In this document: in pieces, positions 912 to 22,877 of the stretch
How positions within the stretch are numbered: the first letter of the stretch is position 1
Layout: the number at the start of each line of letters is the position of its first letter
Virus record (IMG/VR): IMGVR_UViG_2529292836_000011
Coordinates: 1-24,486 of that record
DNA from: a virus
Lineage: Duplodnaviria; Heunggongvirae; Uroviricota; Caudoviricetes
DNA length: 24,486 nucleotides
Reading direction: 5' to 3' (one strand)
Position numbers and translations under genes: made by a program
The notes under the pieces: model-generated
Database searches by the model: none
What the model saw: only the letters and a program-made list of their open reading frames with translations
Told to the model about the DNA's origin: nothing

Positions 912-1290
912 TAGCGATAATTTTACTCATCATCCTTCACATCTGGCTCTGTAGACAGGGTGGTGATCACTTCTGGAGTGAATCCAGATTAAACATCTCA
1001 TTGCTGATGCTTGATATTGAGCATCTGGCGCGCGGTAAGGGGCTGCGTTGAGATAAGAGCCAGTTCATTACAAAGCCTATCTACTGGTGGGCTTGATAAT
1101 GAAACCGGAATTTATTCTGGGTAACCAGTTACGGCAGTACAGCGAAACAACCAAAGCCAGTAAGTGGGGAAATAACACTGGCATCCACTGAAAGATGAAC
1201 CTCCTGCCTTATGGCAAAAAAAGATTCTTTGTGGTGGCGGACTGATGGAAAGACATCCTAATCAAGCAACCACTCCACAGGGTCATAATT

Positions 1291-1671: not shown

Positions 1672-1774
1672 TTATTACAAAAGCCATTCCCTACAGAGTG
1701 GCTTTGATAATGGCTTATACCCTACACGGGATAACTTAACTGATATCCCTTTTAACGGATAAACGGAGCCAACA

Positions 1775-2017
1775 ATGGCAGAGATTATTCCCATGACTGA
1801 AGAACAGAAATTCCAGTTAGAGATTTACAAGCTGGTCATGAACCAGAACGCAGCAGCAGAGGAAGCATTTCAGTTCATTGGCACTGACGAGCTGAAGCTT
1901 GAGCTATTCAAAATTCACTTCCAGTCAGGCGGCGCTAATTCAGATATCACGACCCGCACTATCGAAGCGGTGCGTAAATCGAAGGAAGCGTTAGACCTGT
2001 TCACTACCGGAGCATAA
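1775..2017 (+). CDS. Hypothetical small phage protein upstream of the terminase
   Basis: 80-aa ORF whose stop lies directly before the small terminase start. Confidence 0.5.
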   Translation: MAEIIPMTEEQKFQLEIYKLVMNQNAAAEEAFQFIGTDELKLELFKIHFQSGGANSDITTRTIEAVRKSKEALDLFTTGA

Positions 2018-2019
2018 AC

Positions 2020-2460
2020 ATGGCGCGCCCAACAAAGTATCAAGAGGCGTATGCCGAACAGGCACGCAAACTGTGCTTGCTGGGCTATACAGACGCAGAA
2101 CTTGCTGATTTCTTTGAAGTCAGTGAGTCAACTATTAACAAGTGGAAGCTTGATTATCCTAAGTTTTCGGAGTCCATAAAAAAGGGTAAGGCCGTCGCTG
2201 ATGCAGAAGTTAGTGACCGTCTTTATCAACGCGCTATGGGCTTCGTGGCTCCAGACATCGATATTCGTGTTATTGAAAACAGAATTGTCGAAACTCCGCT
2301 TGAGAAGTATTACCCGCCTGATACAACCGCTGCCATCTTCTGGCTTAAGAACCGACAGAAGGATAAATGGCGCGACAAGGTTGATCACGAGCTAACAGGC
2401 AAAGACGGCGGCGCAATCCAGATTGAAACATCACCGATGAGCACTCTATTCGGAAAATGA
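2020..2460 (+). CDS. Terminase small subunit
   Basis: N-terminal HTH-like motif (PTKYQEAYAEQARKLCLLGYTDAELADFFEVSESTINKWK) typical of small terminases. Its stop overlaps the large terminase start (ATGA). Confidence 0.85.
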   Translation: MARPTKYQEAYAEQARKLCLLGYTDAELADFFEVSESTINKWKLDYPKFSESIKKGKAVADAEVSDRLYQRAMGFVAPDIDIRVIENRIVETPLEKYYPPDTTAAIFWLKNRQKDKWRDKVDHELTGKDGGAIQIETSPMSTLFGK

Positions 2461-3872: not shown

Positions 3873-3873
3873 T

Positions 3874-6072: not shown

Positions 6073-6162
6073 TTAACCCATAACGTGCAATGGCTGTCTT
6101 TATGAGGCCTGGCACCCTATTGCCTTCCGATGGGCTGAACATCGAGTAAACAGGGGTAACAA

Positions 6163-7056
6163 ATGGACCAGATGGCAGAAAACACACCAGAAGTTGAAAT
6201 CGAAACCGATACATCAGAGCAGATTCCTGATGATGTCGAACTGGCTGAAGAAGTCGAAACAGAAGATGGCAGTGAGTCCTCCGGCAATGATGCAGAGGAA
6301 GCTACTGAAACTGATGACGACGAATCAGAACAGGAATTCTACTTTGGTGACGAAAAGCTGGATTCGCCAACCAGCGAAGATGGCGCAGAGCATGGACTGG
6401 TAAAACACCTGCGCAAGACGATTAAAGAGAAAGACCGCGAGCTGAAAGAGCTGATGCGTCAGTCTCAGAAACCCGTCGAGCAGCAGCCGGTAATCACTCA
6501 ACCACCGCGAATGCCAAAACTGGACGATGAGGACATCGGTTTCGATGAAGAAATCTACCAGCAACGCATGGCTAAGTGGGCAGAGGATAACGGCAAGTAC
6601 CAGCAACAGGAGATGGCTCGCAAGCAGAAGGAGCAGGAGCTTCAGGCTGCCTATCAAGAGCGATTATCCAAATATCAGCAACGTGTTAAGGCTCTCAAGG
6701 TTCCTGGCTATCAGGAAGCAGAACAGGCCGTACTCGAGGAAATCCCCATCGAGACACAAAGCGCGATCCTGTTTGAGTCAGAGAAGCCGGAAATCGTTGT
6801 TCTGGCGCTTGGTCGCAACGCTGAACTGCGCAAGCAACTGGCAGAAGCTACCAACCCCGTAGCAATTGGTCGTCTGCTGGAACGTATCGAATCGAAGGCC
6901 AGAATCATGCCAAAAGCAAAAACCACGGCAGCCACAACCCCGACAGTTAAGGGGAGCAACGGCGCAGTAATCAATAACCTCGACAAACTGAAAGCCAAGG
7001 CGCTGGAAACTGGTGACTGGACGCCGTATTTCGCCGCTAAAAAGGCAAAAAAATAA
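6163..7056 (+). CDS. Scaffolding protein (P22 gp8-like)
   Basis: 297 aa with a highly acidic N-terminus and coiled-coil, Lys-rich C-terminus, located between portal and coat. Confidence 0.8.
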   Translation: MDQMAENTPEVEIETDTSEQIPDDVELAEEVETEDGSESSGNDAEEATETDDDESEQEFYFGDEKLDSPTSEDGAEHGLVKHLRKTIKEKDRELKELMRQSQKPVEQQPVITQPPRMPKLDDEDIGFDEEIYQQRMAKWAEDNGKYQQQEMARKQKEQELQAAYQERLSKYQQRVKALKVPGYQEAEQAVLEEIPIETQSAILFESEKPEIVVLALGRNAELRKQLAEATNPVAIGRLLERIESKARIMPKAKTTAATTPTVKGSNGAVINNLDKLKAKALETGDWTPYFAAKKAKK

Positions 7057-7074
7057 CCTATCGGAGCATTAAGC

Positions 7075-8334
7075 ATGGCTAACCAATTAGCAAAAGACCT
7101 TGAAATCATGTTCGAAAACTACGTTGAAGGCTTTGAGGCCGCCTGCGTAGTTTCCCGTAACGCTAAAAAATTCCGTCCCGGTGATACAGCAATGCAGCGA
7201 GCAGGTGATGTTCTGTATCGTCCGCAGCATTACCACATGAACATTGAGGAGGGCTTGGACCTCAGCGAAAAAACACCAACAGCACTGGTTCAGCGCCTTG
7301 TTCCTTCTGTGTTCAAGGAGCCGAAAAACATTCTGTACACTCTGGATGCGCGTGAAATGCGTGACCCGGAACATAAAACTGAAGCTGGTCGAGCCGCAGG
7401 TATGCGCCTTGCTGCACAGATTGACTCTGACCTGATTTCCATGGTCACGCAGCGTGCTACTAACGTGGTCGCAATTCCTGCCTCAGAAAATGGCTCACGG
7501 GGCCTTGCCTTGTGGAATGGTGCGGCAGATATTGATGCCACCATGACGGCGATTGGTGTACCTCAGGGTATCAACCGTCGCTCTTTCTGGAACCCATTCA
7601 ACTACAAAGACCTTGCTGGCGAGCTTGGTCACCGTGCCTACGCTCAGGGCGCAACCCTGACAGCATACGAAAAAGCGCAGATCCCTCCGGTTGCTTCCTT
7701 TGATAGCTACAAGACCGATATTTCCGGTCGATTACCGGCAGGAAGCACTGAAACCTTGACAGTATCAAATAAACCTGAACACAAGGTTGAAGCGAAAGAT
7801 TCAAATGGCATGCCTGTTGATAACCGACAGGGGACCATTACGGTATCTGCTAAAGGCTTGCAGGTTGGCGATGCGTTTACCATCGCAGGTGTGAATTCCG
7901 TACACCAGATCACCAAAGATACCACCGGGCAGCCGCAGGTATTCCGCGTTCTGGCAGTAGACACAGCAGGAACCACCGTAACAATCTCTCCAAAGATTCT
8001 CCCTGTTGGAAATGCCGATGTTGCGAGCCGTCCATATGCAAACGTCGATGCCAAGCCGGCAGAAACTGCAGCAATCACCATTCTCAACAAGAACGCAGCA
8101 CCTGCTAACCTGTTCTGGGCTGATGGTTCTGTTGAGCTGATGTACGGCAAACTGGCGTTCCCGACTGGTCAGGGTCCACAGGTAATGACGGCAACCACCG
8201 AGCAGGGCGCTACGCTGATTATGTCTTACGCCTTCGACCACATCAAAGGCGTAACCACTGCGCGTTTCACCACTCTGTACGGCTGCTCTGTACTTGTTCC
8301 TGAATATACGGGCATCGTTATTGCCGGGCAGTAA
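7075..8334 (+). CDS. Major capsid (coat) protein (P22 gp5-like)
   Basis: 419 aa, after the scaffold gene, with C-terminal blocks resembling P22 coat (PYANVDA..., NLFWADGS). Confidence 0.88.
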   Translation: MANQLAKDLEIMFENYVEGFEAACVVSRNAKKFRPGDTAMQRAGDVLYRPQHYHMNIEEGLDLSEKTPTALVQRLVPSVFKEPKNILYTLDAREMRDPEHKTEAGRAAGMRLAAQIDSDLISMVTQRATNVVAIPASENGSRGLALWNGAADIDATMTAIGVPQGINRRSFWNPFNYKDLAGELGHRAYAQGATLTAYEKAQIPPVASFDSYKTDISGRLPAGSTETLTVSNKPEHKVEAKDSNGMPVDNRQGTITVSAKGLQVGDAFTIAGVNSVHQITKDTTGQPQVFRVLAVDTAGTTVTISPKILPVGNADVASRPYANVDAKPAETAAITILNKNAAPANLFWADGSVELMYGKLAFPTGQGPQVMTATTEQGATLIMSYAFDHIKGVTTARFTTLYGCSVLVPEYTGIVIAGQ

Positions 8335-8341
8335 TTTTGGT

Positions 8342-8364
8342 GGGGCTTCGGCCCCATTTTTATT
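8342..8364 (+). terminator. Hairpin GGGGC-TTCG-GCCCC plus T-run after the coat gene (possible partial terminator)
   Basis: Perfect 5-bp GC stem with a TTCG tetraloop followed by ATTTTTATT, directly after the coat stop. Confidence 0.5.
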
Positions 8365-8375
8365 GGGAGAAGACA

Positions 8376-8564
8376 ATGGCACGAACAATGCTCTATAAGC
8401 CGGGCAACATGATCACCTGTGGTCAGTTTGCTGTCGATTACATCATTGTTGATGACGAAGAAGTTAAATCTCACCTGAAAAAAGGTTGGGTAAAAACTCC
8501 TGAAGAAACCGCAACGAAGCAAAAAGTGGCTAAGGCGGAAGAAGATGGCGAAAACGAAGGGTGA
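8376..8564 (+). CDS. Hypothetical small protein after the coat gene
   Basis: ATG at 8376 preceded by GGGAGAAGACA. The ORF-track start at 8337 would run through the hairpin. The 3' end overlaps the gp4-like gene. Confidence 0.45.
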   Translation: MARTMLYKPGNMITCGQFAVDYIIVDDEEVKSHLKKGWVKTPEETATKQKVAKAEEDGENEG

Positions 8565-9006
8565 TCTCGTTCTTAAGGCTTTACGAAAAGCCGGGCTGTA
8601 TTCCAATGCCACGTTGACAGATGCTGACCCTCAGGCAATTGAAGATGCCATTAATGACCTCGAAGACATGATGGCAGCATGGCAGGCGAAAGGTATCGAG
8701 CTTGGGTATCAGTTTGCTGATACAGAAAACGGCATCATGCCGTTACCTGACGATGATTCAGGTATCCCTGCATGGGCAAATGATGGCGTCGCTTTGAAAC
8801 TCGCTGTGCAAGCGTGCATGGACAACGTCATTCAGCCGTCAGACGCTCTCCTTACCGCTGCTGACAGTGCATATCAAACAATCTGTATCGCTTTAACCAA
8901 AATACCACCACTTGAGCGGCGAAATGACATGCCTCGCGGCAGTGGTAACAAAAGCGCGTTTACGTGGAATCGGTTTTACATCGAGAAAGATGATCCGAGT
9001 ACGTGA
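8545..9006 (+). CDS. Head completion / tail adaptor protein (P22 gp4-like)
   Basis: N-terminus KTKGDLVLKALRKAGLYSNATLTDADPQAIEDAINDLEDMMAAW resembles recalled P22 gp4; position after coat. Confidence 0.8.
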   Translation: MAKTKGDLVLKALRKAGLYSNATLTDADPQAIEDAINDLEDMMAAWQAKGIELGYQFADTENGIMPLPDDDSGIPAWANDGVALKLAVQACMDNVIQPSDALLTAADSAYQTICIALTKIPPLERRNDMPRGSGNKSAFTWNRFYIEKDDPST

Positions 9007-9015
9007 GGTGAATAA

Positions 9016-10434
9016 ATGCCGATTCAGCAACTTCCGCTCATGAAAGGTGTCGGCAAAGACTTCCGAAACGCCGACTATATCGACTATCTGCCAGTGAATA
9101 TGTTGGCTACACCCAAAGAAATCCTTAACAGCAGCGGATATCTTCGTTCATTCCCGGGCATTGCCAAACGTTCTGATGTGAACGGAGTATCGCGAGGCGT
9201 CGAGTACAACATGGCGCAGAGTGCTGTTTATCGCGTGTGTGGTGGCAAACTGTACAAAGGAGAAAGCGAGGTTGGTGATGTTGCCGGAAGTGGTCGCGTA
9301 TCAATGGCGCATGGTCGAACATCTCAGGCTGTAGGCGTTAATGGTCAACTGGTTGAGTATCGCTATGATGGCACGGTTAAAACCGTCTCAAACTGGCCTA
9401 CAGGCAGCGGATTCACGCAGTATGAGTTAGGTTCGGTTCGTGACATTACGCGCTTACGTGGGCGTTATGCGTGGTCAAAAGACGGCACTGATTCATGGTT
9501 TATCACTGATCTTGAAGACGAATCGCATCCTGACCGCTACAGCGCACAATATCGCGCAGAATCGCAGCCGGACGGCATCATTGGCATCGGCACATGGCGA
9601 GACTTCATCGTCTGCTTTGGTTCATCGACGATTGAATATTTCTCCCTGACTGGTGCAACCACTGTTGGGGCTGCTCTGTATGTCGCACAGCCATCACTGA
9701 TGGTGCAGAAAGGTATTGCCGGAACTTACTGCAAAACGCCGTTTGCTGATTCCTATGCGTTTATCAGCAATCCGGCAACAGGTGCGCCGTCTGTGTATAT
9801 CATCGGTTCCGGTCAGGTGTCACCAATCGCCAGCGCGAGCATTGAGAAAATCCTCCGCTCCTACACTGCTGATGAACTGGCTGATGGCGTGATGGAATCG
9901 TTGCGGTTTGATGCGCATGAGTTGCTGATTATCCATCTTCCGCGCCACGTCCTCGTATACGACGCATCTTCAAGCGCCAATGGTCCGCAATGGTGTGTGT
10001 TGAAAACAGGCCTGTATGACGATGTGTACCGCGCTATCGACTTCATTTACGAAGGCAATCAGATAACGTGCGGCGATAAGCTGGAATCGGTTACCGGTAA
10101 ATTGCAGTTCGATATCAGCAGCCAGTACGACAAGCAACAGGAACACCTGCTGTTTACTCCATTGTTCACAGCGGATAACGCAAGAGTGTTTGACCTTGAG
10201 GTTGAATCGTCAACTGGCGTTGCGCAGTACGCCGACCGCCTGTTCCTCTCTGCAACCACTGACGGCATAAATTACGGACGTGAGCAGATGATTGAGCAGA
10301 ATGAACCGTTCGTTTACGACAAACGCGTTTTGTGGAAGCGTGTCGGGCGAATCAGGAAAAATGTCGGCTTCAAACTTCGCGTTATCACGAAGTCACCTGT
10401 AACTCTGTCTGGCGCTCAGATAAGGATTGAGTAA
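9016..10434 (+). CDS. Head completion / tail hub protein (P22 gp10-like)
   Basis: 472 aa, the same length as P22 gp10, between the gp4-like and gp26-like genes. Confidence 0.8.
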
Positions 10435-11135
10435 TGGCGGATTCATCACTGAATAATCCTGTCGCGGTTCAGGCTACGCGCCTTGATGCTTCAATTTTGC
10501 CACGCAATATATTCAGCCAGTCTTACCTGCTATATGTCATAAATCAGGGAGCTGATGTCGGCGCAATTGCCGGGAAGGCAAATCATGCTGGTCAGGGCGC
10601 TTACGAAGCCCAGGTAAAAAACGATGAACAGGACGTCGAACTGGCTGATCACGACGCAAGAATCACCGCAAACACAAAAGCGATAAATCTCCTTGAGGTC
10701 AGGTTAACAACCGCCGAAGGGAAGATAGTCGTACTGCGTAGCGATGTTGATTACTTGCTGGATGAGGTTATCGATATTCAGGGGCATCTGGTCACTGTTG
10801 ACCAAAGACTGGATGACGTAGAAAACGATGTCTCTGGCATTAAGAGTGATTACGTATCGAAAACCGTAACAGAATCGCAGTCTCTTGCGTCACCGCTGGA
10901 TGTAAAAACATCATATTCAGTTGATGGAATTCAGGTTGTTGGAGCAAGAAATACCGGATGGACTGCAGCCACAGGTACACCTCTTCTTGGCTCATTCAAC
11001 GCTAACCAGTCATACACGGTCGGCACTACGTACACACAATCCGAAGTCGCAGCTATCGCTACAGGTTTGGAGCAGGCGCGGCAGCGTATTCTGGCGCTTG
11101 AAACAGCACTTAGATTACATGGGCTGATTGACTGA
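10434..11135 (+). CDS. Tail needle protein (P22 gp26-like)
   Basis: 233 aa; N-terminus [50 protein letters not shown] and C-terminus ...LRLHGLID closely match recalled P22 gp26. Start overlaps the upstream stop (TAATG). Confidence 0.9.
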
Positions 11136-11590
11136 TGATTACATTCAAACCAACGCGAAACATCGACCTGATAGAAGCAGTCGGAAATCACCCTGACATT
11201 ATTGCCGGGAGCAACAACGGCGATGGATACGACTACAAGCCTGAATGCCGTTACTTTGAGGTTAACGTGCACGGGCAGTTCGGCGGCATTGTTTACTATC
11301 AGGAGATTCAGCCGCTGACATTCGATTGCCACGCCATGTACCTGCCAGAGATTCGCGGCTTCAGCAAGGAAATCGGGCTGGCGTTCTGGCGATACATTCT
11401 GACTAACACCACCGTTCAGTGCGTCACATCGTTCGCTGCACGCAAATTCCGCCACGGGCAGATGTACTGCGCAATGATTGGCCTTAAGCGTGTAGGAACC
11501 ATCAATAAATACTTCAAAGGCGTGGATGACGTGACGTTTTACAGCGCCACACGCGAAGAACTAATCGACTTCCTGAATCACGGGAGATAG
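11135..11590 (+). CDS. gp14-like head/ejection assembly protein
   Basis: 151-aa ORF in the gp14 position; start overlaps the gp26 stop (TGATG). Confidence 0.6.
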   Translation: MITFKPTRNIDLIEAVGNHPDIIAGSNNGDGYDYKPECRYFEVNVHGQFGGIVYYQEIQPLTFDCHAMYLPEIRGFSKEIGLAFWRYILTNTTVQCVTSFAARKFRHGQMYCAMIGLKRVGTINKYFKGVDDVTFYSATREELIDFLNHGR

Positions 11591-11592
11591 CC

Positions 11593-12285
11593 ATGTTATA
11601 TGCATTTAAGCTGGGCAGAAAACTGCGCGGCGAGGAACCTTATTGCCCTGAAAAAGGCGGGAAAGGTGGCAGCTCTGATAAAAGCGCAAAGTATGCAGCA
11701 GAAGCTCAGAAGTATGCTGCAGACCGGCAAAATCAGCAGTTCAACACCATCATGAACAACCTGAAGCCGTTTACTCCTCTGGCTGATAAGTATGTCGGCA
11801 GCCTCGAGAACTTATCGTCTCTGGAAGGGCAAGGTCAGGCGCTTAACCAGTATTACAACTCTCAGCAGTACAAAGATCTTGCTGGTCAGGCTCGCTATCA
11901 GAGTCTGGCGGCAGCGGAAGCAACAGGTGGATTGGGTTCCACTGCAACCGGTAATCAGTTAGCAACAATCGCACCAACGCTTGGTCAGCAATGGCTATCT
12001 GGACAAATGAACAATTACAACAACCTGGCAAATATCGGTCTTGGCGCTCTTCAGGGACAGGCAAACGCCGGGCAAACATATGCCAACAACATGAGTCAGA
12101 TTTCGCAGCAAAGCGCAGCACTGGCGGCGGCAAACGCCAACCGACCGTCAGCATTGCAGCAGGGTGTTAGTGGTGCTGCATCCGGTGCGCTTTTGGGTGG
12201 TGGCATAGCCAGTGCTCTCGAGCTATCAACTCCGTGGGGGGCTGGTATTGGTGCTGGTCTTGGTCTGCTTGGTTCACTGTTTTAA
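11593..12285 (+). CDS. Ejection (internal virion) protein, gp7-like
   Basis: 230 aa in the gp7 position, with a Gly/Ala-rich C-terminus. Confidence 0.7.
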   Translation: MLYAFKLGRKLRGEEPYCPEKGGKGGSSDKSAKYAAEAQKYAADRQNQQFNTIMNNLKPFTPLADKYVGSLENLSSLEGQGQALNQYYNSQQYKDLAGQARYQSLAAAEATGGLGSTATGNQLATIAPTLGQQWLSGQMNNYNNLANIGLGALQGQANAGQTYANNMSQISQQSAALAAANANRPSALQQGVSGAASGALLGGGIASALELSTPWGAGIGAGLGLLGSLF

Positions 12286-12295
12286 GGGTTAATCA

Positions 12296-13747
12296 ATGGC
12301 TACGTGGCAACAGGGTATTAATTCTGGTGGTTTTCTGGCTGGCATTGGTGCGCAAAACGAGAATGCGCCAAAGGCAAGCGACATTAACGCAACGCTTGGT
12401 CTGATCCGCGAAAACAATGAACTGGCTCGATCAGGTGCAAATAACGTTGCTCTGACAGGTCTTCGTGGTCTGGCTGGAGTTGCTGATATTTATAAGCAGC
12501 AGCAAAAGCAGGAGCGTAAAGCGGCATTCCAGAAAGGTTATGCGGATGCTTATGCGTCCGGCGACAGGGAGCAGATGCGTAATCTTATTACAGCATTCCC
12601 CGAAGAGTTTGAGGAAGTCCGTAAAGGCATGGGGTATGTCGATGACGCCCAGCGGGATGATTTTGGCAATCTGGCGCTTAAGGCTCAGGTCGCTTCGTCG
12701 CTTGGTCCGGGTGCATTTGGCAGGTTCATGATGGATAACGAAAAGGAGATGCGTCGTTTAGGTATCCCTCCAGAAACTATTGCGGAAATGCAGGTTAATG
12801 ACCCGCAGGGCTTCCAGCACTTCGCAGGTAATCTGGCACTATTTTCTCTCGGTCATGAGAAGTATTTCGATATCAAAGATCAAATGGAAGGTCGGGATAT
12901 TGAGCGTGGCAAGTTGGCAGAGACGATTCGCAGCAATAAAGCTGGGGAAGGTTTAAAGGCGCAAAGCATTGCTGTTAGCCGTGAAAACTCCCTGCGCACT
13001 GCTGGAGGTGCTGTTCCTGCATCTGTTAAAGAATATCAATATTTCAACAGCCTGTCTCCAGAGCAACAAAAGACATATCTTCGTGTTCGAGGTCGTCCTG
13101 ATGCTGGCGGGGAGAATGTTGTGCAACTGGCAGATGGCAGAACGGTAACGGTTGGTAGGAAGCTTCACGGCGCTGGTGCTAATGCGTTCTACGAAGGAAT
13201 AGACAACGAGGGCAATATGATTCGCGTCCCCGCCAGTTCTATTGCTGCTCCGGCTACATCGGCAGCTAATGCACAGAATTACGAAATGAAGAAAGATCTT
13301 GATGCAATTTCTGGCGCATCAATTGACGATCTTGGCTTCATGACAGGTATTACAGGTTCTTCAGGTTCTTTTGCTCTTGGTGCAGATATTCGTAGCAGGG
13401 CATCTGGTGTTGAGGAGAGGAGGCTATACAACGCTGCACAGCGAATCATGGGCAAAATGCAAAATCAGGGGATTGCAGCAGCCCGAGATATGGGGGCATC
13501 TGGCATCAACACCGAAGCAGAGGCCAATAGGTATTTTCAGGGTATGCCAAAGCCTGATTTCTCAAGTCCTGAAGCGCTGCAACAATCAATGCGCGACATT
13601 CAGCAATATACCGACAATTACAACCAGCAATATAACGTTAATGTTGGTAATGGCGGGAAGAAATCATCAAGGCAACAGCCAGCTACTCAGCAATCAGCAG
13701 GAGGTAGCTACACGTCAAAATCAGGCATTCAATTTACGGTGGAATGA
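12296..13747 (+). CDS. Ejection protein, gp20-like
   Basis: 483 aa in the gp20 position (P22 gp20 is about 471 aa). Confidence 0.7.
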
Positions 13748-15759
13748 TGAAAGTAACTGCAAATGGTAAGACATTTACCTTTCCTGATGGTACGAGCACG
13801 GAAGATATTGGGTCCGCCATTGATGAGTATTTTGCTGGTCAGTCAGCGCCAACACAACAAGGTGTTCAGCAATCGCCAGCAGACAACTCACTTGCATCAG
13901 GATATGCACAGCTTGCCACTCAGCAGAAGGAAGGACTAGATCGCTCTGCTGAGCAAGGGGCTGTTTTAGGTGCTGCAATGCGCGATGCCGTTACCGGTGA
14001 AAGCCGAATGACACCAGAAATGGAGAGACTGCAAAATGTTGGGGCTGCCCCTGAGTTGAACTCACTAAGCATGGATGCCCTGAAGGCTGGATGGTCTCAA
14101 CTTTTCGGCTCCGACGCGTCTCAGGAAAAGATTCTTCAGAGTATGGGGGCGAAATTAAGGCAGGATGAGAAGGGTAACACTATCGTTTCCCTGCCATCCG
14201 GTGATTATGCCCTGAACAAGCCAGGTTTATCACCGCAAGACCTGACTTCGTTTCTTGCTAATGCGTTAGCGTTCACACCAGCGGGCAGGGCTGGAACGGT
14301 GCTTGGTGCCATAGGGAAATCAGCTGCTACAGATTTAGCACTACAGGGTGGCACCAGCCTTGCTGGCGGAGAAGATATTGATCCTGCACAAACGGTAATT
14401 TCTGCTGGCATTGGTGGTGTTGGCAAGGGGCTGGAAAATACAGTTAGTGCGGTTTCCAGGGCTGTTCGCGGTGAGATGTCACCGGAAGCAAAGGCTGCTG
14501 TCGATTTTGCGTCGGAAAGAAACCTGCCGTTAATGACCAGTGACACGCTGAAAGATAAAACCTTTATGCAGAGTCAGGCTCAGACATTAGGCGAAAGAGT
14601 TCCTTTTTTTGGAACCGGTAAGAATCGGCTGAATCAACAACAAGCACGAGAAAATTTAGTCAGAACATTTAGCGATGGTCTGGGTGGCATTTCTGATAAA
14701 CAGCTTTATGAATCTGCGACTAAAGGGCAACAAAAATTCATTGAGGCAGCAGGAAAGCGATATAACCGCATAATTGACGCTATGGGGGATACCCCTGTCG
14801 ATCTCTCAAACACGGTAAAAGCTATCGACAATCAGATTGCCGTGTTAAGCCGCCCGGGCAAATCTCAGGATAGAGCCGCGGTAAAAGTCTTGCAGCAATT
14901 TAAAGACGATATCACCAGCGGACCCAATGACCTGCGTCTGGCGAGAGAAAACAGAACTGACCTTCGAAAGCGGTTCATGAATTCAAACGAGACTGTTGAT
15001 AAAGACACGCTCCAGAAAGCCAGCGATATTGTCTACAAGGCATATACAGCGGATATGAAAAAAGCAGTATCCCAAAAACTAGGCTCAGAAGAAGCTGCCA
15101 ATATGTCTAGGGTTGATCGCTCATGGGCTAGATTCAATGACATGATGGGAAGAACGCGCGTTCAAAAGGCAATAGCCAGCGGCAAGGCTACACCTGAGGA
15201 TGTAACAAAACTCGTTTTTAGCCAAAACCCATCAGAACGTTCTCAGCTTTACAGGCTTCTGGATGACAATGGTAGGCAAAACGCACGAGCAGCCATAGTT
15301 CAGAATGCTGTAGATAAGGCGACTGATCCGTCTGGAAATATTAGTGTTGAAAAGTTTATTAATGCGTTACACCGGAACAGGAAGCAATCAGCAACTTTCT
15401 TTAAAGGCGTACATGGAAAGGAACTGGACGGCGTTATTAAATACCTCAACGATACAAGACACGCGGCAAAAGCGAACGTTCAAAACTTAAATGGTCAGCA
15501 GCTTTATGGATTGTTAGTTGGTGGTGGCATCATAAACGCAGCAGTATTAGCGGGGATGCTAAAAACGGCTGCGTTTGTTGTTCCTGCTGCTGGTGTCGTA
15601 GGAGGAGCTGCGAAGGCATACGAAAGCCCTGTTATACGAAATGCCTTGTTACGTCTGGCAAATACGCCAAAAGGTAGCACAGCATATGACAGAGCGATCA
15701 GTACGGTCACACAATCGCTCACCAGAGTCGCACAGGCATCACAAAAAGAAGCTCAATAA
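13744..15759 (+). CDS. Ejection protein, gp16-like
   Basis: 671 aa in the gp16 position, ATGA overlap with the upstream gene, hydrophobic Gly-rich segment near the C-terminus. Confidence 0.7.
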
Positions 15760-15776
15760 CTGGCAGCCACGGATGG

Positions 15777-16127
15777 CTAATTTTTATTCTTTGATCTCGT
15801 CCACAGGTAAAGAAGAGCAATGGCAAGACAGGAAACAGAGAATAGATAACCTACCTCATATGGTGCGCCAAAAAAATTAGCTATTGATACGGGCAAAAAA
15901 GCCGAAGCGATCAGAATTGAAAGGCAAAAAATAAGCCCAGTAACATAGTTTATTAAACTCTTAAATGAGAAACGTTTTGCTTGATTTACGGTCTCAGCGA
16001 GTGATCGCTTAACGATGGATAAAAGAAAATAGATGGCGACAGTAGCTAATGCCCCTTTCCACCAGTCTGGATATAGTTTTGCGACAATCAGCCCAAGGAA
16101 AACCATGATGACAGACTGAGCATTCAC
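15777..16127 (-). CDS. Small multi-pass inner-membrane protein (possible superinfection-exclusion moron)
   Basis: About 117 aa from a GTG preceded by AAGGAGG (5-nt spacer), with three to four hydrophobic helices. AT-rich. The ORF-track start at 16202 adds a non-hydrophobic extension. Convergent with the gp16-like gene. Confidence 0.55.
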   Translation of the reverse strand: MNAQSVIMVFLGLIVAKLYPDWWKGALATVAIYFLLSIVKRSLAETVNQAKRFSFKSLINYVTGLIFCLSILIASAFLPVSIANFFGAPYEVGYLFSVSCLAIALLYLWTRSKNKN

Positions 16128-16192
16128 ACCAACCTCCTTAGTTTTGCTCAGGATACCAGATGATAATGTGTAGTTGGAGTAGCGCGGTTGTA

Positions 16193-16282
16193 ATGCAAGC
16201 ATTTTGTTTTGGTTTTATGCTTGCTTGTATGTGTGTACAGTGTATATAATGCAAGCATACATCACAATAAAGGTGCTTGCAT
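16193..16282 (+). promoter_or_regulatory. Divergent promoter region with two copies of a palindromic operator (half-site ATGCAAGCAT, 14-bp spacer)
   Basis: ATGCAAGCAT at 16193-16202 pairs with inverted ATGCTTGC at 16217-16224. ATGCAAGCAT at 16249-16258 pairs with GTGCTTGCAT at 16273-16282. A TATAAT at 16245-16250 overlaps the second operator. Confidence 0.5.
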
Positions 16283-16283
16283 T

Positions 16284-17276
16284 ATGACTGAAAAGAAAAG
16301 TGGCGAAGGGAAAGCTAAGGGCGGTATCGCTCGCGCAAAGTCGCTGACTAAAGAGCAGCGTTCTGAAATAGCAAAGAAAGCAGCGGCTGCAAGATGGAAG
16401 GATAAACCATTAATTGCTACGCATAAGGGATCGTTCCAGCATGAATTCGGGATTGATGTTGAGTGCTATGTGTTAAATGATGATAACAAAACTGCCGTTA
16501 TTAGCCAGAGAGGCATGGGAGAAGCGATTGGTCTTGGCGAAGGTGGCAGCAGGTTGCCAAAGTTTATTCAGGGGAAAACTATTTCTCAGTATATCGGGCA
16601 TGAATTAAGGGCAAAACTTGAAAATCCTCTTATTTTTCAATACAAACAGGCGGGCACGAACACTCCAGCTAATCCTGTAATACATGGCTACGATGTAACA
16701 ATATTAATTGATTTATGTCGAGCAATCTCTAATGCTAAAGCTGAAGGTAAGTTGCTTTCCAGTCAGGAAGGGATTGCTAAGCAAGCCAGAATCATTATTG
16801 ATGCATCAGCCAAGGCGGGCATTCAGGGGCTTGTTTATGCTTTGGCAGGGTATGACAGAACAAAAGAAGAGGTAATTCAAGCATATAAGCGATATGTTGC
16901 TGAAGAGGCTCGTGAGTATGAAAGAGAGTTCACCCCTGAACTTTATGAGCATTGGTATCGTCTGTATGGTATAGACAAACCAGTTAGAGGGCGACCATGG
17001 GCGTTTAAATATCTTACGATAGATCACATTTATTACCCATTAGCCAGAAGTGAAGGAAAGGTATTTAATTTAGCAAAAACGTCAAAAGAAGAAAAAGGCA
17101 GCAAAAACGATAAAATACACCAGTTTTTATCAGAGGTTGGAGTTAAGGCTCTTAGAACCCAAATAGGTAAGGTTACTGGTATTGCAATGGTTTCTGATAC
17201 TCGAGAAGAGTATGAGAAATACATAGATGAAAAGGTTATTGGACAAAGAACCATAGACTTAAAAGATAAAGAATAA
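16284..17276 (+). CDS. Hypothetical 331-aa protein with a basic N-terminal tail (possibly P63C-domain / anti-repressor-like family)
   Basis: ATG at 16284 preceded by AAAGGTG. N-terminal KGGIARAKSLTKEQRSEIAKKAAAARW motif. Followed by a strong terminator. The ORF-track start at 16209 would run through the promoter and operators. Family assignment is tentative. Confidence 0.7.
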   Translation: MTEKKSGEGKAKGGIARAKSLTKEQRSEIAKKAAAARWKDKPLIATHKGSFQHEFGIDVECYVLNDDNKTAVISQRGMGEAIGLGEGGSRLPKFIQGKTISQYIGHELRAKLENPLIFQYKQAGTNTPANPVIHGYDVTILIDLCRAISNAKAEGKLLSSQEGIAKQARIIIDASAKAGIQGLVYALAGYDRTKEEVIQAYKRYVAEEAREYEREFTPELYEHWYRLYGIDKPVRGRPWAFKYLTIDHIYYPLARSEGKVFNLAKTSKEEKGSKNDKIHQFLSEVGVKALRTQIGKVTGIAMVSDTREEYEKYIDEKVIGQRTIDLKDKE

Positions 17277-17282
17277 GAAAAT

Positions 17283-17304
17283 CCCACCGTCAGGTGGGTT
17301 TTTT
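17283..17304 (+). terminator. Rho-independent terminator (CCCACC-GTCA-GGTGGG then TTTTTT)
   Basis: Perfect 6-bp GC-rich stem with a T6 run, directly after the 16284-17276 gene; an A-run upstream makes it potentially bidirectional. Confidence 0.7.
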
Positions 17305-17317
17305 ATAAGGAGTAATC

Positions 17318-17503
17318 ATGACCATAGAAGAACGTCTGAACAACATTGAGTTGAATCAAACCCTGCTTGACCAGCGACTTTCAGATCTTGAGCTTAAAGA
17401 TCTAGATGTGCAAATATCAGAAGCAGAAGCCAAGCTCTCCAGCTTAAACCACCGCAGGAAGCAAATCCGCGACAGAATTACTCGTGGACGCGGAGGCTGT
17501 TAA
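17318..17503 (+). CDS. Hypothetical small coiled-coil protein
   Basis: 61 aa, with AGGAG 7 nt upstream of the ATG. Heptad-like Leu/Glu pattern and a basic C-terminus (RRKQIRDRITRGRGGC). Confidence 0.5.
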   Translation: MTIEERLNNIELNQTLLDQRLSDLELKDLDVQISEAEAKLSSLNHRRKQIRDRITRGRGGC

Positions 17504-17580
17504 GGTGTGATGGTAATCCTTGCTCACTAAATTTAAGGATGCGAATCTTTCCGGCCATAGGAGTAATCATGATTTACCCA

Positions 17581-18117
17581 TCAAACAACCCACCAGTTTG
17601 CCTGATTGGATACCAGCCTTGCAGTTTTTATGGAATTAATTATGCCATGCTCAAGAGCCTTGTTAGCATCCAAAATGGTCGAGTCTGCTATCAGGGATGC
17701 CCACCTAATATGGGTTCCGATGTCGATATTGAACGTCTCAACGAAGCGATCAAGATCGTTATCGAGGCATTTCCCGTACTCTCTCAATCTGGCATGGTCG
17801 GCGGCTGGGGAGGCAAAGCACCATAATAGAGGATGTAACAGGAATCTTGATAATGGGTTTGCGAAACGTTCTGAGCCAGCCAGGAAAACGATATTAGCTA
17901 TGGATTCAACATTGCTTATGTTGTGAGTTCTAACGGTAACAGGGAGTGACTTAAGAAAGTTATACGCAGTAAAGCCAGCGGCAGTTTCCCCTCCCTGACT
18001 TGATATATGGATATTTAATTCAGTTGCGCCTTGAGATAATGCGGTGAGACAGTGGTTCTGAAGTTGCCCAACAGTGGCAGTGTTAACGGGGCATAAGAAA
18101 TGAATTGTGTGCAGCAT
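17581..18117 (-). CDS. ClpP-like (peptidase S14-fold) protein, N-terminally truncated; translationally coupled to mnt
   Basis: Ungapped match to the recalled ClpP core from the GG motif to the active-site Ser (ISSQGG for INSPGG; VESIAN for AASMGA). His-box RFANPLSRFLLHP for RFCLPNSRVMIHQP. The Asp position reads GIINSI for GLVDSI. Its ATG overlaps the mnt stop (TAATG). Confidence 0.5.
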   Translation of the reverse strand: MLHTIHFLCPVNTATVGQLQNHCLTALSQGATELNIHISSQGGETAAGFTAYNFLKSLPVTVRTHNISNVESIANIVFLAGSERFANPLSRFLLHPLLWCFASPAADHARLREYGKCLDNDLDRFVETFNIDIGTHIRWASLIADSTILDANKALEHGIINSIKTARLVSNQANWWVV

Positions 18118-18365
18118 TATTTTTCATCCTTACCATACATGGTCTTTAGCGTCTCAAGCAGCGCCTCTTTGAATTTGTCAGCTTCTTGCTGAGCAAATGA
18201 CTCAACTGACTTTGGCGACCTATCTTCATCAATCGCGGCTTGCAAAATCATGACGATCTCGGAGTTAACAGAGCGACCATTTTTTGATGCTCTGACAGCA
18301 AGAGCCTCGCGTAAAGATTCAGGGATTCTTACCGTAGTTGGAGAAATTGACACACCCTTTGCCAT
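18117..18365 (-). CDS. mnt: Mnt-like ribbon-helix-helix repressor
   Basis: 82 aa from the ATG at 18365 (AAGGTG upstream). RASKNGRSVNSEIVMILQAAI matches the Arc/Mnt signature (recalled P22 Mnt: RAEANGRSMNSELLQIVQDAL); C-terminus TLKTMYGK versus TLKDLYKK. Confidence 0.8.
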   Translation of the reverse strand: MAKGVSISPTTVRIPESLREALAVRASKNGRSVNSEIVMILQAAIDEDRSPKSVESFAQQEADKFKEALLETLKTMYGKDEK

Positions 18366-18479
18366 ATCACACCTTTGGTATTCAATTTGATAGCAAAGTG
18401 TATGCAAAAAAATTTTGACTAGATATACTCACTTTGATATCTTTTGTATTCGAAAAGAGTTGTTTGCGTGGAGGGTAAC
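18366..18479 (+). promoter_or_regulatory. Divergent mnt/arc promoter-operator region (immI-like)
   Basis: AT-rich 114-bp gap between divergent RHH repressor genes, containing TTGACT and TATACT/TATCTT-like hexamers. By analogy to P22 Pmnt/Pant; the operators were not mapped. Confidence 0.45.
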
Positions 18480-18632
18480 ATGGAGAAAGAAATAAGTAAG
18501 ATTTTGGTAAGGATGCCGCAGTCGTTAAAGGATGCTATCGGTAGCAGGGCAAAGGAAGAGTGCAGGTCGTTTAACTCAGAGGTTATCAAGCGCCTGATAG
18601 ACAGCCTGAAGAGAGAGGGGGTAACGGTGTGA
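18480..18632 (+). CDS. arc: Arc-like ribbon-helix-helix repressor
   Basis: 50 aa from the ATG at 18480 (GGAGGG upstream). VRMPQSLKDAIGSRAKEECRSFNSEVIKRLIDSLKREG parallels recalled P22 Arc (...NGRSVNSEIYQRVMESFKKEG). Confidence 0.8.
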   Translation: MEKEISKILVRMPQSLKDAIGSRAKEECRSFNSEVIKRLIDSLKREGVTV

Positions 18633-18864
18633 TTCGCTTGGATGCAGTAGTCAAAGAGATTGCGATTACCATTTTAAGACCAAATTTTGTTCATGGCGAA
18701 TCATTTGGCACGAACGAAAAATTGAGAAGAGAAAGAGTATTCAGTGGCAAGCGCACGTTTTCAGAAGTGATGCTTGATGCGGCAAAGAAATCAAAACAGT
18801 GAAGCCCCAACTGCGGGAACGGTCAGGGCTTCGGTTGTCAGTAAATCCGTGGAGAAAAACCAAC

Positions 18865-19767
18865 ATGAATAGTATAGCAATTTTAGAAGCAGTGAACACC
18901 TCTTACGTACCATTCAACGGTCAGCAAATTATCACCGCCATTGCTGCCGGAGTTGCATATGTTGCGATGAAGCCAATCGTTGAAAACCTTGGAATGAGCT
19001 GGTCAACGCAGCAAACAAAACTCATGAAGCAGATTAGCAAATTCAACTGTGTTCATATGAACATGGTTGCCGCTGATGGGAAGCTTCGTAAGCTACTCTG
19101 CCTTCCTTTGAAGAAGTTAAATGGATGGCTGTTCAGCATCAACCCTGAGAAAGTTCGTGCTGACATACGTGATAAACTGATTCAGTACCAGGAGGAATGC
19201 TTTAGCGTGCTGCATGACTACTGGACAAAGGGAGAGGCAGCAAATGCACGGAAGAAAACATCTGTTGATGACAGGACTCCGCTTCGTGATGCTGTAAATA
19301 TGCTAGTCAGCAAAAAGCATCTAATGTACCCAGAAGCTTATGCAATGATTCATCAGCGTTTCAATGTGGAAAGTATTGAAGAGCTTGATGCATCTCAGAT
19401 ACCACAAGCAGTAGAGTACATCCACAGGGTAGTGCTTGAAGGTGAGTTCATCGGCAAACAAGAGAAGAAAACCAACGAGCTTTCTGCAAAAGAAGCAAAC
19501 AGCCTTGTATGGCTATGGGATTATGCCAACCGCTCACAGGCATTATTCCGCGAACTGTATCCGGCGCTAAAACAAATTCAATCGAACTATTCCGGCAGAT
19601 GTCATGACTGCGGTTATGAGTTCTCCCGTATTATCGATATAGCGAGAGACGTTTTAATCAATCACACACTAGATGTTGATATTAATGAGCCAGACGGACC
19701 AACGAATCTTTCCGCATGGATGAGACTTAAGAATAAAGAATTACCTCCTTCAGTACATAACTACTGA
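18865..19767 (+). CDS. ant: Antirepressor Ant
   Basis: About 300 aa directly downstream of arc, as in P22 immI, and followed by a terminator. Start taken at the ATG at 18865 ([17 protein letters not shown]...); the upstream GTG extension runs through a hairpin. Confidence 0.75.
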
Positions 19768-19867: not shown

Positions 19868-22138
19868 ATGACAGACATTACAGCCAATGTGATCGTATCG
19901 ATGCCTTCGCAACTATTCACTATGGCTCGTTCTTTTAAAGCCGTAGCCAATGGCAAAATTTATATCGGTAAAATTGACACTGACCCGGTAAATCCTGAAA
20001 ACCGGATTCAGGTTTATGTGGAGAATGAAGACGGTTCTCACGTTCCTGTATCTCAACCAATCATCATTAACGCTGCCGGATATCCGGTATATAACGGACA
20101 GATTGCCAAATTCGTTACCGTGCAAGGCCATTCTATGGCTGTTTATGATGCATATGGTGCGCAGCAGTTCTATTTTCCGAATGTGCTGAAGTATGACCCT
20201 GATCAACTGCGATCTGAACTGGAGGGTCCTGGTGGAGCTGGATTTGTCGGAGGATTAGCAAAGCCTGTTACTTGGAGTGGTTTTGCCGGAGGTGCTGATC
20301 CTACTGGTGTGCTTGATTCAACTGCGGCGTTTCTGGCTGCCAATGCCACGAAAAGTAAAATTTATATCCCAGCGGGCACATACAAACTAACCCAAGATGT
20401 AGTGTCTGATCCCCTTACATCATGGGAAATGGAGATGGGGGTTTCATTTATAGGTGGATACTGGCTGCGTCAGGTACCTTGGTTGTCAGGTGTAGGTAAT
20501 AATATATTTTACTATCTCGAAAGACACTGTAGAAATACATTTATTGCGCCACCTGACGGCATAGGTGTTTACGGGTCGGCACACACTGCCCTCGGTGGTG
20601 CAGGCGGTGCTGCATTAGGGGTGGCAGGTACTGCGATAAACGATGATACATCTGGCTCACGATCAAGTGTGTGGGCCTTGTACGGTTCAGCTATACGCAA
20701 TGCAGGAACAATAGGAGCAAGTCACGGTCTTGAACTTGATATAGCAAACAGGGGGAATGAGCGTGAAATGTATCCTAATTCAATGTTCCCCAACGGTCAG
20801 ACTGACGCATTATGGTTAGGCTCAGGTGGTGAATTAACCCAAGCTGGAGAAGTGTTGAATGCTGCATCGGCAGCAATTGGAATAATAGCTAACGACAAAA
20901 CTGCTGGGAAAACAGCGCGCTTTCTGAAGGGCATCGTATTTGGCAGTAATAGCCTTAAAGGAACCGATGGAGAATCAACAGGTCAAGGTGTGGCAATTGC
21001 TTTTGGTAATAGGCACTCAATGACCTGGTACAACAATTTAAATCAGAAAACTTCTGAAATACTCTCTGTTTTGGAGGATGCAACCAGATCAACCAGAATG
21101 TTATTTAGTGATAATGGCGTAGTATTTACACGATTATCGTCTGGGTTGCCTATATTTGCCATAGAGTCTGGGCCTACAGTTCCTGCCAATTATCTATCCA
21201 TGCGCTCGCATACAGAATCTAATGCTCCTGCTGTTGGCGTTGCTGGAAGCGATAAAGATATTCATTTGAGGCTATCTCCAAAAGGGGATGGCATTGTAAT
21301 AGTAGACTCATCTATTGCACCATTATCACAGAACAGTAACAGCACGGTCGGAACTGCTGGTCGTGTGTGGTCTGGTGGATTCACTCAAACAGCCTTTACC
21401 GTTACTTCAGATGAGCGAGCTAAAACTGCACCTCTTGAAATCACTGATACAATACTTGACGCATGGTCAGAGGTTGACTTCGTTCAATTTCAGTATCTTG
21501 ACAGAACAGAAGAAAAAGGGGAAGACGGAGCTCGTTGGCATTTTGGCGTAATAGCTCAACGTGCAAAGGAGGCGTTTGAACGTCATGGGCTTGATGTGCA
21601 CCGATTTGGATTCTTTTGCTTTGACGAGTGGGATGATCAATATACTAAGGTTCAGACAAACGAAGGTGTAATGGTTACTAAAACTCGCATAACAACAGTT
21701 CCAGTGCAGGTTACTAAAACTCGAATTGTAAGCAAACCAGTGATGGTTACTGAGAGTCGTCAGGTATTAAAGGATGAGGTACTGGAAGACGGAACACGGA
21801 TTAAACGAGTAGTGAATGAAGAGTATCAGACTCCAAAAATGGAAATGATACCTGTTCTTAATGAAGATGGTTCACCTTTTGCGCAAAATCCATTCGTAAG
21901 CGTTCCTGTAGTTGAAGATGTAGAAGAGGAGTACATCGAGACAGAGTTTCAAGAAGTAGAAGAAGAGTATGAAGAAGAGGCAGAACCAGAATATGAAGAT
22001 ATTCTGGTCACTCCGGCAGGCTCACGTTATGGTATCCGTTATGAAGAGGCGTTAGTCCTTGAAGCTGCATTACAACGCAGGAATTACCAAAAAGCATTAT
22101 CTAGAATTGAAATGATAGAAATGAGAGAAAATATATAA
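19868..22138 (+). CDS. Tailspike: P22-type N-terminal head-binding domain, divergent receptor-binding domain, C-terminal S74-type intramolecular chaperone domain
   Basis: N-terminal ~115 aa ([11 protein letters not shown]...[21 protein letters not shown]...[12 protein letters not shown]...NVLKYDPDQ) near-match the recalled P22 gp9 N-terminus. The centre is AT-richer and Gly/Ser/Ala-rich. The C-terminus carries TSDERAKT and [13 protein letters not shown] motifs typical of autocleaving chaperone domains. Confidence 0.9.
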
Positions 22139-22232: not shown

Positions 22233-22877
22233 TTATTTTTCTGAAGCGCTTCTGTTTTCTAATATTTTTAATGGGATTTCAATATTAGACGTCCCGAAAG
22301 ATGAACCAATCAAATTCCACAGCTCATTAGGTTTTAACTTCCACCATTCAGTCTTTAATAATCTATCAATTATTTCTGGAGGATGTCTGTATCTAATAAC
22401 CTTAGCTGGTACTCCTCCTACAATTGCATATGGCGGTACATCTTTAGTAACAACAGAGCCTGCGGCAATGATGGCACCAGTTCCAATATTAACCCCTGCT
22501 AAAATTGTACATCTAGAACCAATCCATACATCATGCCCTATGATAACATCAAGATCTTTCCCAAATATGTCAGAGCTCGCCTGCCATATATGTCCTGTAG
22601 GGTTAAATCCATTTCTTAACTCAGGATCTACAACCATATTTAGCGGGTAACTTGTTAATGTATTTGTCGCATGACGACCTTGTCTTCCAACAAAAATCAC
22701 AACGTCGAAAGCTATAGAGCAATATTCACCAATTGAAAGAATTCGCTTGTCGTCATGCATCCCAATCTCAATTCTTGGTTTTCCGTATGTGTATTCACCA
22801 CACTGAATAGTCAAGAAATCTCTGCTGTAATTAGATCTTAAATAAGAAGCAGTTGATGCTGGGCCAGGAAAATTCAT
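22233..22877 (-). CDS. Hexapeptide-repeat acetyltransferase of the XAT class (Vat/CatB-like)
   Basis: 214 aa; C-terminal IGHDVWIGSRCTILAGVNIGTGAIIAAGSVVTKDVPPYAIVGGVPAKVIRYRHPPEIIDRLLKTEWWKL closely parallels recalled CatB/Vat sequences (IGNDVWIG...GDGA...VTKDV.PYAI.GG.PAK.IK.RF...I..L....WWNW). Markedly AT-rich compared with the structural genes. Confidence 0.85.
   Translation of the reverse strand: MNFPGPASTASYLRSNYSRDFLTIQCGEYTYGKPRIEIGMHDDKRILSIGEYCSIAFDVVIFVGRQGRHATNTLTSYPLNMVVDPELRNGFNPTGHIWQASSDIFGKDLDVIIGHDVWIGSRCTILAGVNIGTGAIIAAGSVVTKDVPPYAIVGGVPAKVIRYRHPPEIIDRLLKTEWWKLKPNELWNLIGSSFGTSNIEIPLKILENRSASEK

Follow-up and report, generated by a model that had tools for sequence, protein, structure and literature searches.

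The left ant moron of a P22-like prophage: assorting cargo modules and an operator-like array at a P63C-domain gene

In phage P22 and its relatives, the region between genes 16 and 9 holds the "ant moron", which is in "rapid flux" and occurs in ten types among sixteen genomes (Villafane et al. 2008, PMC2629481). The corresponding region is described here for the viral record IMGVR_UViG_2529292836_000011, whose positions 1 to 24,486 form the window, that is, the whole stretch of DNA that was analysed. The window represents the late region of a prophage related to P22. The interval from 15,760 to 18,117, between gp16 and mnt, makes up the left half of this hypervariable moron and is not one insertion; since it is the region of the published ant moron, the phenomenon of an accessory slot is already known, and this island adds an unusually large example of a cargo slot described since 2008. 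The reading preferred here, with a probability of about 75%, is that this left ant moron consists of four independently assorting modules that were joined by recombination at short conserved joints, and to which the roles proposed below may be assigned. The main new result is the description of a conserved cis-element, an array of four operator-like sites at the start of a gene for a P63C-domain protein.

The locus resembles that of P22 in several ways. The homologues of genes 16 and 9 flank its variable region, it carries the same mnt-arc-sar-ant core of immI, the leftward gene after gp16 uses the same leader as sieA does in P22, one gene lies downstream of mnt in the mnt operon, and there is much flux among the relatives. 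It differs from P22 in that sieA is replaced by the gene for an unrelated small membrane protein and orf59a by that for a ClpP paralogue. A rightward P63C cassette and an open reading frame (ORF) of 61 amino acids (aa) are extra here, and the gap between gp16 and the tailspike gene is 4.1 kb, compared with 2.9 kb in P22.

Other described systems bear on single modules. BstA is encoded by a single prophage gene beside cI, has a KilA-N-like N-terminus and mediates abortive infection; its self-immunity element (aba) is a 63-bp DNA stretch straddling the start of its own gene (PMC8585504). PpClpP1 of Pseudomonas plecoglossicida is a ClpP paralogue that lacks the N-terminal region and assembles into a wide-pore tetradecamer. 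It has a Ser-His-Pro triad, low activity and no ClpX binding, and with canonical ClpP it forms a more active mixed tetradecamer (PMC12900304). The SieA exclusion proteins of types A to C share the motif FxRYPxEAxxFNK (PMC10883804).

Modules and joints of the cargo slot

The mosaic structure appears when the window is compared by blastn with three E. coli prophages and P22. The alignments change partners at 16122–16164, 17298–17321 and 17559, and the same joints recur in the IMG/VR loci, where matches to the P63C cassette stop at the joint 17298–17321. From 13701 to 16158/16164, gp16 and the adjoining membrane gene are 99.8% identical in E. coli SW070919 and ATCC 11775. The genes that come next differ between the two strains, one having three small ORFs and the other a hypothetical gene and a gene for a YafO toxin. 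The P63C cassette (16125–17321) is common only to MS 21-1 among the three prophages, and there it lies beside a different gp16 and a different leftward gene. The segment with the 61-aa ORF (17306–17558) is common only to SW070919, and the segment with clp, mnt and arc (17559–18632) is common to all three. In the IMG/VR loci, the P63C cassette adjoins clp, the 61-aa ORF plus clp, or mnt directly.

The junction was surveyed in 78 IMG/VR loci with a gp16 homologue and in reference loci, 59 of which have both the end of gp16 and the start of the tailspike gene. In these 59 loci the gap between the two genes measures 165–4109 bp, the longest being that of this stretch, and it holds 82 ORF clusters. 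The alternative cargo includes a YafO toxin, a SocA/Panacea antitoxin with a partner gene, a CI-type repressor with helix-turn-helix and S24 domains, an HNH endonuclease, lipoproteins and Bro-N/P22_AR_C proteins. Several unrelated membrane proteins, true SieA types among them, are encoded leftward at the junction. In 5426 complete E. coli genomes, searched with a coverage of at least 80%, the 3′ half of gp16 with the membrane gene occurs in 183, clp with mnt in 78 and the P63C cassette of this locus in 3, and in none of them is at least 80% of 15400–18700 present in one place. A scan of genome contigs with gp16 gave one locus only.

At the lower end of the size range is a locus with 165 bp between gp16 and the tailspike gene (L067). 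Prophage BTP1, the carrier of BstA, has 156 bp there (locus L175, 14022–14178) and thus lacks any ant moron. Insertion sequence (IS) elements break the region in several E. coli genomes (L003, H14–H16, H43), with ISEc12 in or near the tailspike gene, IS3 and IS5; one IS5 sits inside a P63C gene. In L011, a clp remnant is shortened to 72 aa. These interruptions and the remnant likewise speak for flux and decay here.

A sequence-only reading of the window had described the interval as an accessory (moron) island with four extra genes in three transcription units, inserted into an otherwise preserved P22 late gene order and most likely devoted to lysogenic conversion or defence. The gene order stands. 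Pfam and PHROG assignments place P22-order virion genes upstream (Rz, terminase, P22-type portal, scaffold, coat, gp7, gp20 with an Inj_translocase domain, and gp16) and mnt, arc, ant, tailspike, a hexapeptide acetyltransferase and integrase to the right of the cargo slot (Table 1). Exactly four credible ORFs, spanning 15777–18117, fit between gp16, which stops at 15759, and mnt, which ends at 18117. Three transcription units are a fair count, these being the membrane gene leftward, P63C followed by the 61-aa ORF rightward, and mnt-clp leftward, though clp belongs with the mnt operon and is no separate unit. The alternative cargo to be looked for at this junction in related prophages was found, as were sharp joints in the alignments from which the insertion boundaries were to be defined. 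"Inserted" is inexact because P22 itself has sieA and orf59a at this place, so that cargo has been replaced in a variable slot. The cargo is indeed variable and non-core, but the boundaries given to the island differ from those of the modules, the membrane gene going with gp16 and clp with mnt. A role in defence or lysogenic conversion is plausible from the position and the neighbouring cargo. The island is probably expressed from the prophage, and late transcription would have to cross the whole region to reach the tailspike gene.

The island had also been called more AT-rich than the head genes, which is true but not confined to it. Its GC content is 42.0%; that of the virion genes is 50.0%, and the GC-poorest 2358-bp segment of 1–15759 still has 46.8%. 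The P63C cassette has the lowest GC of the interval (40.2%). Low GC goes on rightwards through immI (43.4%), the tailspike gene (44.0%) and the acetyltransferase gene (37.7%); since the AT-rich tract spans the whole right arm, composition does not set the right edge of the island. The breadth of this tract (~14.5 to 23 kb) would suit the hardly credible view that the four genes are ordinary conserved genes of the lineage whose low GC is right-arm composition, the ClpP-like gene being a leftover head maturation protease. This view is already contradicted by the comparative data, as the presence of the four genes varies widely among close relatives; they are neither core genes of the lineage nor host-like in composition.

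Table 1. Positions of features in and around the left ant moron (window coordinates)
Feature	Position	Strand	Remarks
gp16-type DNA-ejection protein, 671 aa	13744-15759	+	phrog_770 DNA transfer protein, 1.3e-172; left anchor
Weak terminator-like hairpin directly after gp16 stop	15765-15778	+	5-bp stem, then AATTTTTATT
Multi-pass membrane protein, 116 aa, in sieA position	15777-16127	-	several hydrophobic segments; most likely GTG start at 16127 after AAGGAGG
Leader (Shine-Dalgarno sequence and start codon) of sieA-position gene	16122-16158	-	~37 bp, TGGTATCCTGAGCAAAACTAAGGAGGTTGGTGTG
Operator-like site 1	16193-16202	+	ATGCAAGCAT
Operator-like site 2, inverted, one mismatch	16217-16226	-	contains -35 TTGCTT (16221-16226)
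Operator-like site 3, fused to -10 TATAAT (16245-16250)	16249-16258	+	ATGCAAGCAT
Operator-like site 4, inverted	16273-16282	-	abuts P63C ATG
P63C-domain protein, 330 aa	16284-17276	+	Pfam PF10546, residues 202-289, 35.9 bits (cut-off 26.1)
Intrinsic terminator of P63C cassette	17283-17298	+	CCCACC-GTCA-GGTGGG, then T6
Direct repeat, 14 bp, flanking the 61-aa ORF	17308-17321 and 17559-17572	+	AGGAGTAATCATGA (Shine-Dalgarno sequence and ATG)
Predicted coiled-coil ORF, 61 aa	17318-17503	+	phrog_7586, 1.1e-43
N-terminally truncated ClpP paralogue, 178 aa	17581-18117	-	Pfam CLP_protease PF00574, 44.4 bits (threshold 20.2)
Mnt-type ribbon-helix-helix repressor	18117-18365	-	Pfam Arc, 9.6e-11; right anchor
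sar antisense RNA	18798-18864	-	Rfam RF00262, 82.4 bits (threshold 43)
Tailspike with P22 Head_binding domain	19868-22138		also Peptidase_S74 chaperone domain

The P63C cassette and its operator-like array

A moron in the sense of Hendrix and Juhala is a promoter-gene-terminator unit set into a phage operon. The P63C cassette (module 2, 16159–17321) would be such a self-contained single-gene unit. Like a moron it has a GC content below that of its neighbours and is present or absent between near-identical flanks, and its promoter-like elements and terminator would suit such a unit. Unlike a plain moron it carries a deeply conserved operator array and has a mosaic joint inside its gene. The terminators and operators of its own that had been ascribed to the island are both there: a strong hairpin with a T-run after the P63C gene and a weak one after gp16, which overlaps the 3′ end of the membrane gene, and four 10-bp sites within 16193–16282 that are conserved in distant homologues.

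These sites are copies of the motif pair ATGCAAGCAT/ATGCTTGCAT. In P63C genes across Proteobacteria this pair forms an array, in the order > < > <, that covers the promoter and the start codon. For example, homologues in Azotobacter and in metagenomes have the same four sites in the same order within unrelated surrounding sequence. Upstream of 54 diverse P63C genes, 17,280 nt contain 148 exact copies of the 8-mers TGCAAGCA/TGCTTGCA, and the other parts of these loci, 429,521 nt in all, contain 11; this is a ~330-fold upstream enrichment. At least three sites are present in 34 of the 54 loci, in the order > < > < near −85, −62, −31 and −8. When 22 distinct upstream regions with unrelated flanks are aligned, a −35-like TTGCAt falls within site 2, a spacer of 17–18 nt leads to a −10 of the form TAnnAT that is joined to site 3 (TAnnATGCAAGCA), an SD-like (Shine-Dalgarno-like) GGAG is present, and site 4 overlaps the ATG. 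The P63C family, with thousands of members, thereby gains a precise cis-element that covers the −35, the −10 and the start codon.

The array may be read by the protein itself. The P63C protein has a basic N-terminal helix hairpin (residues ~10–38), a central domain (~40–195) and the P63C domain (202–289). The motif GGxARAxxLxxExRxxIAxKAAxARW lies in the predicted hairpin and is present in 48 of 53 homologues. Sites are found with 46 of the 48 motif-bearing homologues and with none of the five motif-less ones (Fisher p 7e-6, with kinship ignored and the motif assigned partly by eye, the regular expression having under-called it before the re-scoring). This co-occurrence suggests autoregulation. 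In the P22-like loci L071, L073 and L079 the promoter and first 39 codons are 96–98% identical to those of the window and the protein body only 54%, so the regulatory head and the motif travel together; the mosaic joint that parts them from the protein body lies at ~16399–16503. The 255-bp head without the rest of the cassette occurs, at ~96% identity, in ~64 of the complete E. coli genomes (of 67 with some match, 3 have the whole cassette). The P63C protein would thus bind the four sites through its basic helix hairpin, and binding would repress its own synthesis and keep its level in the lysogen low. With the cis-element and a candidate DNA-binding motif at hand, how the family is regulated, and perhaps what it does, is open to direct testing.

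The array could instead consist of RNA hairpins that control translation, or serve as an aba-like DNA decoy that silences the protein during replication of its own prophage. Sites 1/2 and 3/4 are inverted pairs 22–26 bp apart that could fold, site 4 abuts the start codon and adjoins the Shine-Dalgarno sequence, and the BstA self-immunity element is likewise placed astride its own gene start (PMC8585504). This makes for a quite improbable alternative to an autoregulatory operator, as both arms are conserved in sequence, not just in complementarity, so that there is no covariation. Moreover, the conserved −10 at site 3 puts the expected transcription start inside or after site 3, which leaves no 5′ arm in the mRNA; a DNA operator is therefore favoured over an RNA hairpin. 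As for a decoy, the aba sequence is unrelated to the array, and a decoy role would be compatible with autoregulation. Rfam matches on the array, all far below threshold, are to plant miRNA models and merely mirror the inverted repeats.

The protein is assigned to phrog_2384 (4.5e-103), and NCBI names it a P63C domain protein (for P0001). It has 2766 homologues, and clustering at 50% gives 1888 representative clusters; identities of 60–70% extend across gamma- and beta-proteobacteria, with Enterobacterales, Burkholderiales, Azotobacter, Ralstonia and Laribacter among them. At an E-value of up to 10, Pfam has no match to the N-terminal 45 aa or the central 164 aa, and P22_AR_N, P22_AR_C, Bro-N and KilA-N domains are not detected in the protein by Pfam. 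Matches to EngA and to designed Kelch repeats in PDB sequence and profile searches were set aside as spurious, leaving no PDB relative. An AlphaFold2 model has a predicted local distance difference test (pLDDT) score of 62.6 and is good only for residues 40–190; a Foldseek search of BFVD lists mostly Bro-N, KilA-N, "repressor domain" and antirepressor proteins, plus Mx8 p63, all with E-values of at least 4e-3. In homologue P0246, the N-terminal 122 aa of the P63C protein are joined to P22_AR_C, the C-terminal domain of P22 Ant. Taken together, the fold matches and this fusion point to the modular Bro/KilA/Ant class of phage proteins. Almost nothing relevant was found in the literature on "P63C"; the domain was reportedly defined by Iyer et al. 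in 2002 among shuffled domains of viral regulators.

In other prophages the P63C gene stands alone at typical cargo sites. Genes for CI-type repressors often lie immediately upstream of it, as in L086, L087/88, L100, L124, L133, L151, L161 and L166 (ORF calling was noisy in high-GC loci, and ten neighbours were checked by Pfam). The protein would most likely act on incoming or resident phage, either by a BstA-like abortive infection or as an antirepressor-like factor. A case can be made that it is a second antirepressor, or another regulator of the immunity circuitry directed at resident or heteroimmune repressors, and that it controls induction and has no part in defence. It lies in the immI/ant moron beside mnt-arc-sar-ant and next to cI elsewhere, in a relative the N-terminal half is fused to the C-terminal domain of P22 Ant, its fold matches are of the right kind, and tight autoregulation suits a regulator. 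This is somewhat unlikely, since the protein has no P22_AR_N, P22_AR_C or Bro-N domain of its own and the stretch already encodes a complete Ant under Mnt/Arc/sar control. Furthermore, a constitutive antirepressor in a lysogen that was not restricted to foreign repressors would make lysogeny unstable.

The likeness to BstA (ST313-td in prophage BTP1) is one of organisation. Both are encoded by single prophage genes of ~300 aa, combine an N-terminal KilA-N/Bro-like DNA-binding region (predicted for P63C) with a second domain, typically lie beside cI in many prophages, occur across alpha-, beta- and gamma-proteobacteria, and have a conserved DNA element straddling their own gene start. They differ in that the P63C element is a four-site inverted-repeat array over the promoter, of unrelated sequence. 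Membership of the BstA family itself was rejected (hhalign of A1 against BTP1 ST313-td gave a probability of 0.85%, and PADLOC had no match). A more far-reaching proposal, that P63C is a widespread mobile "gene plus operator" cassette for BstA-like phage exclusion with the array doubling as a self-recognition or decoy element, and that the adjacent ClpP paralogue remodels host ClpP in lysogens, is decidedly doubtful.

Several observations weigh against the preferred reading of four assorting modules and the roles proposed with it. PADLOC-DB 2.0 has no credible defence-model match for any of the four island proteins, and scanning all ORFs with PADLOC, NCBIfam, Pfam and PHROG likewise gave no defence family. 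The 60–70% identity of P63C proteins across bacterial classes suggests strong purifying selection, which is untypical of arms-race genes. The P63C domain is poorly modelled (pLDDT <50), and the test that links motif and operator took no account of kinship. Promoter calls are at the consensus level only, the region as a whole being no richer in promoter-like sites than shuffled sequence. The protein in the sieA position is not a SieA (BLASTP against P22 SieA gives an E-value of 0.27, and FxRYPxEAxxFNK is absent).

A truncated ClpP paralogue in the mnt operon

Module 4 (17581–18117, minus strand) encodes a ClpP paralogue that the lysogen would produce along with Mnt. The start codon of clp (ATG) and the stop codon of mnt overlap (TAATG, 18115–18119, with AAGGA upstream of the ATG), which makes clp the second, distal gene of the mnt operon, and co-expression with Mnt implies its synthesis in the lysogen. 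The protein matches PpClpP1 (PDB 9UXT) with an E-value of 1.8e-35, residues 3–175 aligning with 4–179. It begins at about position 20–37 of ClpP profiles and chains and so is without the N-terminal axial loops on which ClpX and ClpA dock. Ser72 and His95 are invariant in 20 Clp-like homologues, and the third triad position is Asp in none of the 20, with Ser or Ala-Thr instead, so the family departs from a Ser-His-Asp triad. It scores far below all NCBIfam cut-offs for ClpP equivalogs and head maturation proteases. PpClpP1 thus shares with the Clp-like protein full-length homology, the missing axial-loop region, the retained Ser and His and the missing Asp. Unlike PpClpP1, the Clp-like protein has Ser/Thr, not Pro, at the third triad position, and its gene lies on a prophage, translationally coupled to that of Mnt. 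By analogy with PpClpP1, it would co-assemble with host ClpP and alter proteolysis by ClpXP and ClpAP.

The family (loci L169–L174) occupies cargo positions in several unrelated types of prophage. In lambdoid prophages of Klebsiella the clp paralogue is flanked by the lysis genes and terminase and lies on the opposite strand; it is also found in a myovirus-type prophage of Chromobacterium, and after mnt in a P22-like prophage of Pectobacterium. PpClpP1-type truncated ClpP paralogues therefore appear to be prophage cargo in enterobacteria. This suggests that prophages tune host proteolysis, and the prophage habitat changes the reading of "second ClpP" genes such as that of PpClpP1, a recently suggested drug target.

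In PHROG the Clp-like protein matches best to "head maturation protease", and phage phiv205-1 (MN340231) carries the same annotation, which would speak for a leftover protease of the head genes. The annotation is almost certainly wrong because the family sits in cargo positions of unrelated prophages. The NCBIfam model for ClpP-related head maturation proteases gives 49 bits against a cut-off of 120, and assignment to that class was rejected. In addition, clp lies on the strand opposite to the late operon and is coupled to mnt, the closest characterised relative is a cellular-type ClpP paralogue, and no protease is known to take part in the maturation of P22-type capsids.

An ORF of 85 aa with a good Shine-Dalgarno sequence runs antisense to the 3′ third of clp (17569–17826, plus strand; phrog_7758, 1.6e-61). 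Its frame stays open in clp homologues of 57–79% identity. It is either a real overlapping gene or an artefact of codon bias.

Membrane gene, 61-aa ORF and flanking genes

Module 1 (15777–16127, minus strand) would encode a small inner-membrane protein under the leader common to genes in the sieA position. Its start lines up with the annotated start of P22 sieA (34 bp, 94% identical). Among more than 45 loci of the P22 type, including the 5′ end of P22 sieA, the leader keeps 85–100% identity, and it heads at least five genes that are unrelated to one another. It may serve as a recombination joint of the slot, as a shared expression or translation signal, or as both. Pfam, PHROG and PADLOC have no match for the 116-aa protein, and a tblastn search of 50,697 phage records found none. 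Locus L072 has, in this position, a gene for a true type B/C SieA with FNRYPGEARKFNK. By its position and shared leader alone, the 116-aa protein may be of the exclusion type.

Module 3 (17322–17558) would consist of the 61-aa coiled-coil ORF, gained or lost between the 14-bp direct repeats. The ORF is present in nine of the surveyed loci and in phage Emek (orf61). Loci without it have a single copy of the repeat, which fits gain or loss by recombination between the two copies. There is no space for a promoter between the P63C terminator and this ORF. Scans with Pfam, NCBIfam, PADLOC and PHROG gave nothing beyond a PHROG of unassigned function; a PADLOC match to PbeC (E-value 0.001, 15.7 bits) was judged to be coiled-coil noise.

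To the right of the island, Pfam Arc is matched twice, and the counterparts of Mnt in RefSeq relatives carry the annotation Arc family protein. The true ant gene (18865–19767) encodes P22_AR_N and P22_AR_C. In an Rfam scan of 15600–19000, sar was the only RNA found; since it lies alongside mnt, arc and ant, the immI circuit appears complete. An ORF of 57 aa (18629–18802, phrog_17642) is located between arc and ant. The hexapeptide-repeat acetyltransferase gene (22233–22877, minus strand) lies between the tailspike gene and integrase. No heptanucleotide repeat tract occurs near its 5′ end. It has a GC content at third codon positions (GC3) of only 26%, and it is likely a surface-polysaccharide conversion gene.

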